The translations under genes and the position numbers were made by a program. Positions 13,001 through 26,269 of a stretch of 64,000 nt of DNA are shown here, piece after piece. The first letter of the stretch is position 1. Each line of letters starts with the position of its first letter. Under the pieces are notes generated by a model. The model made no database searches, was not told where the DNA came from, and saw nothing but the letters and a program-made list of their open reading frames with translations. This stretch comes from a virus (taxonomy: Duplodnaviria > Caudoviricetes). The stretch lies in IMG/VR virus record IMGVR_UViG_3300021431_000113, positions 1 to 64,000 of that record. One strand, 5' to 3'.

Positions 13001-13352
13001 AAGAAAATATAAAACGGTATAGTTTTAATTTCCGGCACTTCGTGCCTCCAATTAAAACTATACCTTAGAGTGACTTCTTTTGTCGAGAGGTCTTTTTGAC
13101 GTGGCCCGCTCCGGAACAACCAAGTTTCAGGTGCCTATGACGTTCTTTTGGTGAGCGTAATGCGAGCCGAATAACTGGAGCGGGATGCCATATCCTGCGT
13201 GGCGGACGCTCGCCGCCCGTTCAATCAACTACCCGCAAGAGGTCTATAAGTCAATCAACTATACCTATTGTGCCTATGCGGGTTGGCGTTTAAGGTGGAG
13301 CGGAGGAAGTTCCTTTAGGTTTACATAATATTTTTATGTAAACCTTTTTTTT
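13001..13352 (+). ncRNA. candidate ~350-nt structured ncRNA of unknown family
   Basis: Promoter upstream, terminator downstream, no ORF of 60 aa or more; 15-bp, 10-bp and 7-bp helices. Confidence 0.7.
13317..13352 (+). terminator. intrinsic terminator
   Basis: AGGTTTACATA/TATGTAAACCT followed by a T run. Confidence 0.85.
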
Positions 13353-13400
13353 GTGCAAAATGCACAAAATTTTGGGAAAATTTTAAAAAATTTTTGTGCA
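13351..13400. promoter_or_regulatory. TGCACAA...TTGTGCA operator (spacer 26) plus extra half-site
   Basis: Half-sites 13351-57, 13361-67, 13394-400. Confidence 0.7.
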
Positions 13401-13552
13401 ACTTTTTTAGAAAAAAATTTGACAATGCAGGAATTTTATGGTAGAATCGGGGCGCTTCGCAAGCTCGCGCGCCGGCAAATCTTTGTCAATAGGCAAAATT
13501 CACAAAAAATCAGCGCGAATCTGCTTATTTTTCAGCAAATTCGCGCATTTTT

Positions 13553-13930
13553 TCACTTTTTTGGGCGGTGTTTGGTCAATTTTATTGTATATTTCTCGTC
13601 AAAATAAGAAAAATACAGTTCTGTTTCAGTTTTTTGCCCAGTAATTACTACATTTTCATCATCAAAGAGCGCATCTTTAATAATTTGGAGCAAATCCGCC
13701 TTATTATAGTCAATTTTACGCTCTTTTTTAACATTTTTACGAGGGTTTGCACTCTTTTCATAGTGACGTCCGCCCGCCTTAGCTTTCTTATCTATTTCCT
13801 CTTGTTCGGGGTTAGTCATTTTATCATTATCAGCAAGCCATAATTCACAAGCTTCAGCAAGGGAAATATCAAGGTTATCCATGAGTTTATCAATCTCTTT
13901 ATCAGGTATATCAAATCTATTATATTTCAT
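13553..13930 (-). CDS. hypothetical protein, paralogue of 14286..14666
   Basis: MKYNRFDIPD...ISLAEACELW...YTIKLTKHRPKK; start reset to 13930. Confidence 0.75.
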   Translation of the reverse strand: MKYNRFDIPDKEIDKLMDNLDISLAEACELWLADNDKMTNPEQEEIDKKAKAGGRHYEKSANPRKNVKKERKIDYNKADLLQIIKDALFDDENVVITGQKTETELYFSYFDEKYTIKLTKHRPKK

Positions 13931-14285
13931 AAGTTTATCTCCTCTCTTACTTTCTATTGTTATTATAGCATAGCGGTGTTGATTTGTCAACAAAAAAATA
14001 AATATCTTTGGTCTTTTCCATTTCTGCGGTTTTCTGTTAAATTTTAAACAGTCTACATAGTGTACGTTAAGCAAAATTAGAAACGAAAAACCCTCAAAAA
14101 TAGAGGACGGGTCTATTCTTGAGGGGGAGGACACAATCCGACAAAATGGATGGCGGCTGTGTTGAACGACTTTTTTCGAGAAAGTATTTATTTTTTACTT
14201 TCTATAAATATTATACCAAAAAATTTTTTATTTGTCAACAATTATTTTTAGGGGCCGGCCGCAGTTAAGGGGGTCTAACGACCCC

Positions 14286-14666
14286 CTATTTTTTAGGGGG
14301 ACGATGTTTTGTGAGTTTGAATGTGTAGGTTTCGCCCTCAAAAGTGAAAGTGGTTTCAGTTTCTGTCTTTCTGTTGACAACTACTGCGCCCAAATCTTCA
14401 ACGAGTGCGCTCACTTCATCAAGAAAGAATTTTTTAGTTTCATCTACCTTACGAACCTTTTCAGTTTTTTTTCTATTGCCACTCTTTTCGTATCTGCGAG
14501 GAGCGTTCTTTTCGGCTTCTTTGATAGCCTTCTTTGTTTCTTCGCTTTCCTCTTGCTTTCCGCTTTCTTCAAGTATCAAATCACAAGCATCAGCAATTGA
14601 GCAACCGAGCTTTTCTACATACTCATCAATTTTATTATCGTCTACATCAAATCCGTTATATCTCAT
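14286..14666 (-). CDS. hypothetical protein, paralogue of 13553..13930
   Basis: MRYNGFDVDD...CSIADACDLI...YTFKLTKHRPPKK. Confidence 0.8.
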   Translation of the reverse strand: MRYNGFDVDDNKIDEYVEKLGCSIADACDLILEESGKQEESEETKKAIKEAEKNAPRRYEKSGNRKKTEKVRKVDETKKFFLDEVSALVEDLGAVVVNRKTETETTFTFEGETYTFKLTKHRPPKK

Positions 14667-14722
14667 TTTGAGTACCTCTCTTTCATTTGATACTTATATT
14701 ATACTACTTTGGGGTTGACTTG

Positions 14723-15427
14723 TCAACCCCTTTCATATAATTTTTTTCTCATAGGTTTATGTTTTCTAAAGCAATAAGCTAAAATTTCTTTTTCAATAAG
14801 TACATCTTCCAAACCTGTATGACTTTCAACAAAATCATAGTTACTACTTATATATTTATAGATAACCTCAGCTTTTACTTGTGGTCTTGGTGTCTTATGC
14901 TTTGTCATATATCCATTTTCAAGACAAAATGCTTTATAGCTTGGAGTTTTTGCAACTACATCTAAAGCCATTTTCATAGTATCCCAAACTTCTGTGCCAT
15001 ATGGTAAAAAGTTTCTATACTTGGACTTTGTTAGCCATCTTTGAGTGTTTTTCGTTGCGCCATCATCAAACCTTGCATTATGGGCGCATACTATTTTTGT
15101 ATTGTATCTTTTCATCGTATCAGCAAGGTCTTTTCTAATTGTATACCATGTTGCAACCTTGCGCTTGCCACTCTTTATATCTTCCCAATATTTAGGAATT
15201 TTATTGCTATAATAAGCACTATTCATTAAAGTTTTTTCATCCATGAAAATGTCACGATTTATATATGACTTTGTTTCGTAAACAGTACCTTTTTTATCAA
15301 CAACCGCCCACCCAATGTCATATACGAACATATTGAATGGTGAAACACCCTCAAAGTCTTTATCAAGTGGACAAGTTTCTGTATCAAGTACAACGATGTA
15401 ATGCTTTCTTCTGTCGATTTTTTCCAT
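14723..15427 (-). CDS. DEDDh 3'-5' exonuclease (DnaQ-like)
   Basis: VLDTET, AHNARFD, HTGLED motifs. Confidence 0.88.
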   Translation of the reverse strand: MEKIDRRKHYIVVLDTETCPLDKDFEGVSPFNMFVYDIGWAVVDKKGTVYETKSYINRDIFMDEKTLMNSAYYSNKIPKYWEDIKSGKRKVATWYTIRKDLADTMKRYNTKIVCAHNARFDDGATKNTQRWLTKSKYRNFLPYGTEVWDTMKMALDVVAKTPSYKAFCLENGYMTKHKTPRPQVKAEVIYKYISSNYDFVESHTGLEDVLIEKEILAYCFRKHKPMRKKLYERG

Positions 15428-15487
15428 TTTGTTAAACCCTCTTTTCTTTATTTGATATACTTATTGTATCATATCGCTTGGCATTTG

Positions 15488-15949
15488 TCAAGCGATATTT
15501 ACAAGTTTTTCAATTTCTTTCATTATATTATAATTTGCATTGATTGTAGCACCCAATCTCCAACCTTTGCGCACCATTTCGTTATCATCAACTAAAACCT
15601 GATAACCACCAATTTTTCTTGTGCAATTTGCTTTAGTAGTTCCATATTTTACAAGATGGATTTCATCATATGGAAAATTGTACTTTGCAAGCCAATCAAG
15701 TTTTGCTTTTCTTGTTCTGTTATTGTATTCTTTTGTACCATTCTTTGCAAGCCATGTTGTAACAACTACTTTCCAACCTCTTATTTTAAGAGTATTGAGA
15801 AGATTTGCAAGTTCTACCATATTATAAAGTGGCTCTGCTACTTCATAAGGTGTGGTATCTTCGGCTTTAAGATAATCAAGCCAACCTTTTACACCATAGA
15901 AATTTGCGATTGTACCATCCATGTCAAATACGATTGTTTTATTTGCCAT
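15488..15949 (-). CDS. HAD-family nucleotidase-like phosphatase
   Basis: IVFDMDGTI, VVVTT, K, LVDD motifs; start reset to ATG 15949. Confidence 0.8.
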   Translation of the reverse strand: MANKTIVFDMDGTIANFYGVKGWLDYLKAEDTTPYEVAEPLYNMVELANLLNTLKIRGWKVVVTTWLAKNGTKEYNNRTRKAKLDWLAKYNFPYDEIHLVKYGTTKANCTRKIGGYQVLVDDNEMVRKGWRLGATINANYNIMKEIEKLVNIA

Positions 15950-16041
15950 AGCCTTTGTTCTCCTTTCCTTTACTGTAATTACATTATACAGTATAAGAAT
16001 AGAAATGTCAACAAAAAAATAAAAAAAATCATAGGTAAAAA

Positions 16042-25052: not shown

Positions 25053-25114
25053 TTTAAAACCCTCATTTCTCATTTTCTATATTTATTATAGCAAATTTTT
25101 TATTATTTGTCAAG

Positions 25115-25259
25115 AACTTTTTTTTGAGATTTCTCTCTGTAAGGTCTCCGTTGGTAGTTAGCTTCTTTCTGAATCCGACCCCGTCCAAGCCGAACCCCTA
25201 CTTTCACTAGCTAGAGCAACTATCTCACTGAAAGGTTTCTGCCTTACTTCCCTTTCTGT
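25115..25259 (-). ncRNA. candidate ~140-nt structured RNA
   Basis: Promoter TTGACT-N17-TATATT; GTAAGG/CCTTAC and TAGTT-GCT/AGC-AACTA helices; no RBS-linked ORF. Confidence 0.4.
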
Positions 25260-25303
25260 AATTATAATATACCACATCTTCCTACAGAAGTCAAGTAAAA
25301 TAT

Positions 25304-25333
25304 TGCACAAAATTATAGGATGAAATTTGTACA
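25304..25333. promoter_or_regulatory. operator TGCACAA-N16-TTGTACA
   Basis: Inverted half-sites between divergent promoters. Confidence 0.72.
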
Positions 25334-25440
25334 GTTTGTACAACAAAAAACACTTGACAAATTTGCCGACCTGTGATATAATGAAATCGCGGCAGGCTCG
25401 CGACAAGGACGCCCGCGAGCCTGCCGCCAACTAAAAAGGT

Positions 25441-25749
25441 CTAGCAGTAAGCTAGACCCATGTCACGCCATCTCAGAACGCTTATCTGATTGCATGCTCT
25501 GCCAATTTCCATCGCTTCGCGCTTTGTGTTAACTCTGTGGCTAAGGTCTATATAATAGACACCATCTGCAAACCAGATTCCGCAGTTTCCGCCATATGCT
25601 TTTATCATCTGCATAGCTTCGCGAATATCTGTAGTTTCTTTTCCCTCTGTTGCTACTTGCCAACCGGTTTTATATACTATAGGCTTGCCATTTTTAAGAG
25701 TAAGTCCACCATTGTTTGTTATCTTTTTAAGTGTTCTTATATTTATCAT
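25441..25749 (-). CDS. hypothetical protein
   Basis: GAGG RBS, own promoter. Confidence 0.75.
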   Translation of the reverse strand: MINIRTLKKITNNGGLTLKNGKPIVYKTGWQVATEGKETTDIREAMQMIKAYGGNCGIWFADGVYYIDLSHRVNTKREAMEIGRACNQISVLRWRDMGLAYC

Positions 25750-25840
25750 TTTGAGTTCCTCTCTTTCCTTTATCTTATGTATACATTATAGCATTTTTGA
25801 TCCGGTTTGTCAACACTTTTTTTAAATATTTCTTTGAGGT

Positions 25841-26008
25841 TTAACCCTCAAAGAAATATTGATTTTCTGCGTTCATGATAATAATTTCTCTAATGTTGAA
25901 AAGTGCTTTTTCTTTTCTGTAAAAGTCAAATACTGCGCAAGCCTGATGTCTATTTGTTGTTGCAAGTATTGTATCTCCATTGATTATTACTTCATAAGTT
26001 CCGTTCAT
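25841..26008 (-). CDS. hypothetical protein
   Basis: Start reset to MNGTYEV. Confidence 0.62.
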   Translation of the reverse strand: MNGTYEVIINGDTILATTNRHQACAVFDFYRKEKALFNIREIIIMNAENQYFFEG

Positions 26009-26098
26009 GTTATCCACCCTATCCCCTCTTTTAGGGGTTCCTTTCCTTTTTTCTGATTTAATAATATCATTTTTTCTAGTATTTGTCAAGCAAAATTT

Positions 26099-26138
26099 TG
26101 CACAAAAAACACAAATTTTATGAATTTATTTTTGTGCA
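26099..26138. promoter_or_regulatory. operator with duplicated left half-site
   Basis: TGCACAA 26099, ACACAA 26109, TTGTGCA 26132. Confidence 0.68.
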
Positions 26139-26269
26139 ATTTTTTATCATTTTTCTACTTGACAAATGCCGTTCTCATGTGGTATAATATTTCGACACTG
26201 AAGCGGAAACGACGCTCTAACCGGTAAAAAGCTTGCCTTGTGGTGATTCAAGGCAAGCTTTCCGCATTT

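Follow-up and report, generated by a model that had tools for sequence, protein, structure and literature searches.

An operator-type dyad of gut and rumen Clostridia as a candidate host signal in the early region of an uncultured large phage

The early region of the uncultured phage in IMG/VR virus record IMGVR_UViG_3300021431_000113 (Duplodnaviria; Caudoviricetes) contains ten copies of a long-spaced dyad, TGYACAA-N15/16/26-TTGTRCA, at 13.3-26.2 kb, six of which are exact. The window analyzed here comprises the first 64 kb of this 76-kb record, which is judged to be 57% complete. Judged from sequence and context, TGYACAA(A)-N16-(T)TTGTRCA is an operator-type dyad that is placed at discrete offsets just upstream of sigma-A-type promoters and is common to Clostridia and their phages. 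The interpretation we favor, at a probability of roughly 0.55, is that the dyad is the operator of a candidate host regulator and has been multiplied in the phage early region.

The dyad and its promoters in the early region

The first-pass annotation of this DNA had described a ten-copy operator in fixed phase between divergent promoters. In the window, the six exact N15-17 pairs compare with a mean of 0.013 and a maximum of 1 in 300 dinucleotide-preserving shuffles, and 28 of the 32 half-sites lie inside 13-27 kb; the motif scan with a shuffled control, which had been proposed as a check, thus gives a strong excess. None of the ten copies falls into a gene supported by a ribosome-binding site, though such genes occupy 57% of the region; the element is strictly noncoding. 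No full copy had been noticed in 28-64 kb, and none is found up to the end of the record at 76 kb either. All ten sites of the earlier list are retained; only the N17 pair at 26109 had to be reread, as the right arm of an N26 pair starting at 26099 that had been matched with a degenerate inner arm. The length of the spacer is held while its letters are free. The copy at 16120 is indeed changed symmetrically in both arms (TGTACAA/TTGTACA), and mixed arms also occur (25304).

The register of the dyad relative to the flanking promoters is as described before. Six sites (16120, where the promoter is decayed, 21190, 23575, 24639, 25304, and 26099) have a leftward -35-like hexamer at a distance of 9-10 nt from the left arm, and six (13361, 16894, 22189, 24639, 25304, and 26099) have a rightward TTGACA at 18-20 nt from the right arm. 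Counted from the hexamers, the center of the dyad is near -60 of the leftward and near -70 of the rightward promoter. The dyads are embedded in a classic early region (13.9-28.3 kb) with about 30 perfect leftward promoters of the type TTGACA-17-TGnTATAAT, which precede small minus-strand genes, each with a terminator after it. Rfam and tRNA scans returned nothing at the dyads.

Among complete relatives, G006 (130,270 bp with terminal repeats; 50-89% protein identity) is the closest, and it contains the same modules in the same order. At the tandem pair of dyads B and C (Table 1), the leftward promoter serves an operon for a HAD-phosphatase and an exonuclease-like protein, and the rightward one leads into a winged-helix gene; this layout is repeated in G006 (dyads at 112389/112543; gene 112835-113152). 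The left arm of dyad F is overlapped by the leftward -35, and the orthologous module of G006 is located at 117492. Dyad I is flanked by a weak leftward promoter (25266-25294) at 9 nt and by a rightward one at 20 nt. Between dyads B and C, positions 16072-16119 hold half a hairpin and a -35-like box without a -10, and the G006 equivalent (112389-112572) comprises a complete hairpin together with two convergent promoters, both intact; the module of the window looks partly deleted.

Distribution among phages and host chromosomes

No DNA relatives of the window were found among deposited phages by megablast and blastn. Its terminase is nearest to those of uncultured gut phages and, more remotely, to those of Geobacillus virus E3, Enterococcus phages of about 140 kb, and phAss-1. 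The phAss-1 lineage has been assigned Clostridia/Eubacteriales hosts, in a paper that makes no mention of promoters or repeats (PMC10607447). The 16 specified bases of the dyad are present in at least 117 IMG/VR contigs, many of them 120-195 kb in size. Each of the 46 other large gut and rumen phage records of the phAss-1 lineage that were searched whole contains one to nine copies, clustered in about 10 kb, and the reversed-pattern control gave zero. The genome of phAss-1 has dyads at 126735, 128910, and 134871. No copies are present in Enterococcus phage EF1, Geobacillus virus E3, or Enterocloster phage PMBT24; the early region of EF1 is equally rich in consensus promoters and contains no recurrent long-spaced dyad. 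The genes most often found beside the dyad in phages encode the HAD phosphatase and the exonuclease-like protein, not regulators. Three dyads, one of them 9 nt from a leftward -35, are found in the complete 37-kb phage G031, which has no proteins in common with the lineage of the window. Going by sequence, the same 9-nt offset in an unrelated phage would count against a reader private to one phage.

The same dyad is found on bacterial chromosomes. In a scan of one genome per prokaryote species, almost all matches came from gut and rumen Clostridia (Oscillospiraceae, Ruminococcus, Acutalibacteraceae, and Lachnospiraceae), and 31 exact dyads were present in 24 of 121 genomes sampled from one such host family (control, 0). 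The commonest target is a conserved gene for a peptide of about 44 amino acids (...EKKFLTFKKLFKIFELNALL). In at least 15 chromosomal loci with differing neighbors, the dyad ends 6-7 nt before the promoter TTGACW-17-TGTATAAT of this gene, with the arms kept and every spacer different, and the flanks are ordinary metabolic genes. The loci of the peptide gene (L243, L242, L308-L313, and L326-L334) always have it behind a dyad and a near-consensus promoter. The peptide belongs to no Pfam family, carries no name in any source, and has no phage homolog. In three loci it is followed by a gene for a PRC-barrel protein (YlmC/YmxH-like); the genes around the peptide gene yielded this protein alone, and no regulator was found there. 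A second recurrent place, with seven loci (L159, L169, L186, L318, L320, L324, and L339), is the interval between a TetR gene and a class-III aminotransferase gene. Single-copy chromosomal promoters with conserved arms, a free spacer, and a fixed length are the signature of an operator that is read by a host protein. The dedicated phage regulon of the first-pass annotation is therefore unsupported, because the dyad occurs in many other phages, the unrelated one included, and in chromosomes of gut Clostridia.

A contig assigned to a bacterial genome bin (locus L233) carries five dyads within 8 kb. They precede TTGACT promoters by 9 nt and occur alongside LexA-type boxes (GAAC-N4-GTTC). The contig probably represents a phage or mobile element in which the two signals are combined.

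The spacing of the arms gives an indication of the nature of the reader. Over 1.8 Mb of related phage DNA, N16 accounts for 166 sites (the ascertained class), N15 for 3, N18-24 for practically none, and N25-27 for 32; the last class is one helical turn beyond N16. In typical N26 modules of the relatives, each arm is located 9-10 nt from its own -35, which is why the distance between the two -35 hexamers is about 59 bp in the N16 and N26 classes alike. Where a third arm is present, it is always separated by 3 nt from the outer side of an arm, as in the three-arm sites 22189-22227 and 13351-13400. The N25-27 spacing and these third arms point to a multidomain protein as reader; on sequence grounds, the geometry would fit a protein with at least two DNA-binding units, either held apart or flexibly linked, and would not fit a hairpin. 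NikR operators offer a comparison: in E. coli they have the form GTATGA-N16-TCATAC and are bound by two DNA-binding dimers that are held apart by a central tetramer. The dyad resembles them in having short half-sites exactly 16 bp apart, and membership is not claimed. The half-sites differ in sequence and a link to nickel genes is missing, the targets of the dyad being the peptide gene, the TetR/aminotransferase genes, and phage early genes.

The two-way cassette and neighboring features

In the phages, the dyad forms the core of a two-way promoter cassette of about 130 bp. Class A sites, which comprise 43 of 196 phage sites, are characterized by a central YGGGA, 4-5 nt after one arm, and by a counter-oriented promoter exactly 19-20 nt from the far arm. 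Their right flank is conserved across phages and consists of an A/T-rich linker, TTGACAAAA, a GCGGSG block in the spacer, and TGGTATAATGG. The counter-oriented promoters lead to no genes. The predicted counter-transcripts start with GGAAAWTTCG, followed by a GC-rich stem of 9-14 bp and by CGACAAAAA; the stem letters vary from copy to copy yet stay paired, and the loop is often CGAAC-like. Beyond CGACAAAAA lies the terminator hairpin of the convergent early gene. In some modules this second hairpin is a two-way terminator, giving a predicted RNA of about 75 nt; in other modules, as read from the sequence, the counter-transcript should extend across the preceding early unit in antisense and reach plus-strand terminators 400-1200 nt further on. 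In the window, this description applies to the promoters at 13419, 16943, 22238, 23658, 24688, 25354, and 26159. Members of this 5'-terminal GC hairpin family were seen in the window at 16972-17004, 22276-22311, 23691-23729, and 25389-25427, in L261 at 12467-12528, in L273 at 9039-9100, and at about 30 more places; in G006, one GC hairpin is flanked by two convergent promoters.

The two promoters of the cassette differ in quality. Among proximal promoters (arm at 6-11 nt), 45% have a perfect -35 and TTGCAA is enriched, while 88% of the distal ones (18-21 nt) are perfect. The weaker proximal -35 lends modest support to a factor that helps the polymerase at the proximal promoter. Cassettes of the window phage and of G006 cross-match many-to-many at 72-85% identity, and most of the small genes between them differ.

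Table 1. Positions of dyads, counter-oriented promoters, and winged-helix genes in the window
Feature	Position	Strand	Description
Dyad A	13361-13400		TGCACAA-N26-TTGTGCA; outer arm TTGTGCA 13351-13357, 3 nt to the left; rightward TTGACA at 13419, 18 nt away
Dyad B	16042-16071		Exact N16; first of tandem pair; leftward promoter 15983-16011, 30 nt away
Dyad C	16120-16149		Exact N16; both arms TGTACAA; rightward promoter TTGCAA-17-TATAAT 16160-16188, 10 nt away
Dyad D	16894-16923		Exact N16; central AGGA; sole promoter rightward, 19 nt away
Dyad E	21190-21219		Exact N16; leftward promoter 21151-21179, 10 nt away
Dyad F	22189-22227		AGCACAA-N15-TTGTGCA, one mismatch; third arm TGCACAA 22221-22227, 3 nt outside
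Dyad G	23575-23603		Exact N15; leftward promoter 23537-23565, 9 nt away; rightward promoter 54 nt away
Dyad H	24639-24668		N16, one mismatch; right arm TTGTGTA; central GGGA; leftward promoter at 9 nt, rightward at 19 nt
Dyad I	25304-25342		Exact N16, TGCACAA/TTGTACA; extra TTGTACA 25336-25342
Dyad J	26099-26138		N26; degenerate inner arm at 26109; leftward promoter 26061-26089 at 9 nt, rightward at 20 nt
Counter-promoter and 5' segment	13419-13480	+	TTGACA-17-TAGAAT 13419-13447; GC-rich 5' segment
Counter-promoter and hairpin	16943-17004	+	Consensus promoter 16943-16971; 5' GC-rich hairpin ~16979-17002
Counter-promoter and hairpin	22238-22311	+	Promoter 22238-22267; 5' GC hairpin ~22276-22311; antisense to unit 22335-22965
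Counter-promoter and hairpin	23658-23729	+	Promoter 23658-23687; 5' GC hairpin ~23691-23729
Counter-promoter and hairpin	24688-24758	+	Promoter 24688-24717; reads into hairpin 24733-24758, doubling as the minus-strand terminator after tRNA-Lys
Counter-promoter and hairpin	25354-25427	+	Promoter 25354-25382; GC hairpin with 14-bp stem ~25389-25427
Counter-promoter and short transcript	26159-26270	+	Promoter 26159-26188; transcript to terminator 26228-26261
Winged-helix gene	16402-16755	+	117 amino acids
Winged-helix gene	21592-21909	-	Paralog
Winged-helix gene	5434-5841	-	Paralog
Winged-helix gene	5965-6336	-	Paralog

Several further features of the window and its relatives were observed. About 15 decamers with TTA/CTTA, repeated with a period of 10 bp (26981-27130), adjoin a lone half-site at 26964-26970. 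The 18-mer ATAGGAAAGGAGGATTTT is present at 21299-21316 and 24759-24776, each time directly adjoining a minus-strand terminator, one copy after tRNA-Lys and the other after a tRNA-like remnant near 21330-21400; on the minus strand it resembles the 3' end of 16S rRNA (CCTCCTTTC). A tRNA with the anticodon UUA is encoded at 2220-2295. In the relative G024 (144 kb; L263-L270, e.g., 103428-103679), the late genes for terminase, portal, and capsid are split into short frames under translation table 11, a pattern consistent with the stop-codon recoding that has been reported for the phAss-1 group.

The reader of the dyad and its meaning for the phages

The following course of events is proposed. The reader would be dimeric or tetrameric, with two DNA-binding units that are separated or joined by a flexible link and that contact arms about two helical turns apart, and it would be encoded by the Clostridial host rather than by the phage. 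The phage would have multiplied the site in its early region within the cassette, in which a leftward promoter for early genes (distance from arm to -35, 9-10 nt) is combined with a counter-oriented promoter (arm at 19-20 nt). From the latter, an RNA led by the GC hairpin would be fired, antisense into the preceding early unit, and binding of the factor would couple early transcription in both directions, sense and antisense, to the host's state, or switch between them. Recruitment or activation by contact with RNA polymerase is slightly favored over repression, because the site lies wholly upstream of the -35 and the dyad-proximal promoters tolerate a weaker -35. Taken as a whole, the scenario is tentative and falls somewhat short of an even chance: a candidate regulator of gut and rumen Clostridia would read TGCACAAA-N14-TTTGTGCA, and a broad group of their large virulent phages would have captured the site into a two-way cassette of dyad, early promoter, and hairpin-RNA counter-promoter, serving as a host-state-dependent sense/antisense switch for host-takeover genes.

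Several points weigh against a host regulator as the reader. No reader protein was found, and both its binding and its host origin are what we infer. Zero to four sites per host genome are few for a general regulator. In hosts, the distances between dyad and -35 (7, 9-10, 19-20, 25, 34-36, and 46) are not on one helical face, for which reason a strict dependence on phase is not established, and the fixed offsets of 9-10 and 19-20 in phages reflect in part the common descent of the copies. In the window, the promoters on either side of the dyad already match the consensus and should not require an activator. Finally, the phages do hold a multicopy winged-helix family near the dyads.

This family is the basis of the main alternative, which is conceivable and yet considered unlikely, namely that the reader is encoded by the phage. 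A winged-helix member would bind the dyad, regulate its own gene from the tandem dyads B and C, and time the early promoters in the manner of phi29 p4; the dyads of the hosts would be sites of a different protein, or relics. Among the approximately 45 early proteins scanned with Pfam and PHROGs, in a record that is without 43% of the genome, the generic winged-helix family is the only DNA-binding family, and its fold the only recognizable one of that kind. Its members have 105-135 amino acids, with two N-terminal helices and a C-terminal winged helix; they match MarR/ArsR/Zalpha-type wings by profile and fold, the fold model (mean predicted local distance difference test score, 83) showing only a generic likeness. 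Three to five copies are present in each of the five large relatives and in 30 viral sources near dyads, and the gene at 16402-16755 is transcribed divergently from dyads B and C, as it is in G006. Three tandem consensus promoters (21985, 22090, and 22189) were seen to precede the copy at 21592-21909. The first-pass annotation had named this winged-helix protein and the protein at 11880 as possible binders. The latter is present in only two of the five large relatives and is thereby disfavored. The winged-helix protein fares poorly as well, since the family is absent from the dyad-bearing but unrelated G031 and was not found in phAss-1 (one query); its genes lie just downstream of dyads in 8 of 60 cases against 94 of 1309 control ORFs (open reading frames), which is a weak enrichment, and the conservation of dyads at host chromosomal genes is left unexplained. 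The host TetR encoded beside the dyad in seven loci was rejected as a reader: an ortholog is missing from the dyad-bearing genomes G001-G005, and no TetR_N domain was found in five phage records. A TetR-family operator would call for a TetR regulator wherever the dyad is used. The CodY, SpoIIID, Rex, and tra boxes and the sigma-H -35 were compared with the arms or with the central GGGA, and none matched well enough.

Explanations that dispense with a regulator are less convincing still. T4-type PeSL units are repeated cassettes of an early promoter and a stem-loop that border small variable early genes. A mobile promoter-terminator cassette of this kind, whose repeats provide homology for the shuffling of early genes, is improbable as the primary role; the same applies to its variant, a site for a site-specific recombinase, which the first-pass annotation had also suggested. 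The many-to-many matches with G006, the differing small genes in between, and the terminators that abut the cassettes recall the T4 units. The cassette of the window, in contrast, fires both ways, contains a protein-type dyad, and makes a hairpin RNA, and the phage lineages are unrelated. As for recombination, the arms are kept while the spacer, where crossover would take place, is free in host and most phage sites, the chromosomal sites are single-copy, the early region is collinear with that of G006 without inversions, and no recombinase was seen among the early genes scanned; in res/hix-type sites the center is conserved, unlike in host and class B sites of the dyad. The cassettes may nevertheless promote mosaicism as a side effect, given their many-to-many matches between relatives and the turnover of the intervening genes. 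Most improbable of all is a role of the nucleic acid structure itself, as a cruciform driven by divergent transcription or as a weak two-way terminator. According to the twin-domain model, negative supercoiling is expected between divergent strong promoters, which is where the site is located, and at 16889-16928 the pairing of the arms continues into a stem of 18 pairs, with a T run after it. Most copies, however, would form a stem of only 7-8 bp with a loop of 14-16 nt, and the dyad is upstream of both promoters and therefore not transcribed from them. The arm variants (C or T at position 3) show no covariation beyond chance, with 24 CG, 4 mixed, and 1 TA in seven phage records, and the N26 variants and third arms match reading by a protein, not pairing.

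The host-regulator interpretation finds its closest counterparts in phi29, a virulent phage of Firmicutes. There, protein p4 binds an inverted repeat between the divergent sigma-A promoters A2b/A2c and A3, with half-sites about two helical turns apart; the dimer, centered at about -71/-82, contacts RNA polymerase, activates one promoter, and traps the other. The dyad shares the spacing of about two turns and the position between divergent promoters. It differs in the sequence of its arms, in its ten copies, and in its presence in host chromosomes and unrelated phages; both window promoters are of the type TTGACA-17/18-TGnTATAAT, with no -35-less one among them, the proximal -35 being relaxed in 55% of cases in the relatives, and no p4-like protein was found in the partial record scanned with Pfam and PHROGs. 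The early promoters of phi29 further hold several sites for Spo0A, by which early transcription follows the state of the host. If the dyad is indeed read by a host protein, both would be cases of a virulent phage with several host-regulator sites in its early promoters, although the arms are TGCACAA/TGTACAA and not the 0A box TGTCGAA, and the dyad is long-spaced. Class I CRP-type sites are similar in that the dyad is centered near -60 of one flanking promoter and near -70 of the other, a difference of one helical turn; in contrast to CRP/FNR class I sites, the dyad is of 30 bp with N16 instead of the 22-bp TGTGA-N6-TCACA. As regards centers on a single helical face (-61.5, -71.5, and so on), the picture is mixed, with offsets of 9-10 and 19-20 in the phages and host offsets that do not all share one face.

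In kind, the finding is that of an operator and of the borrowing of a host site by phages, the interesting parts of which are the regulator and the hairpin counter-transcript. No description of the motif was found in the searchable literature, where full-text searches for the arm sequences gave only primers and unrelated matches. The dyad, with its 16 specified bases and a spacer of fixed length, is a sharply delimited orphan DNA signal that links uncultured gut and rumen phages to Clostridial hosts. It could be used as a mark for host prediction of such phages, and dyad DNA used as bait should readily capture the regulator. If the reader is a host protein, this would be the second and far more extensive case, after phi29 and Spo0A, of a virulent phage that ties its early program to a host regulator, to which the cassette adds a conserved counter-transcript with a hairpin.

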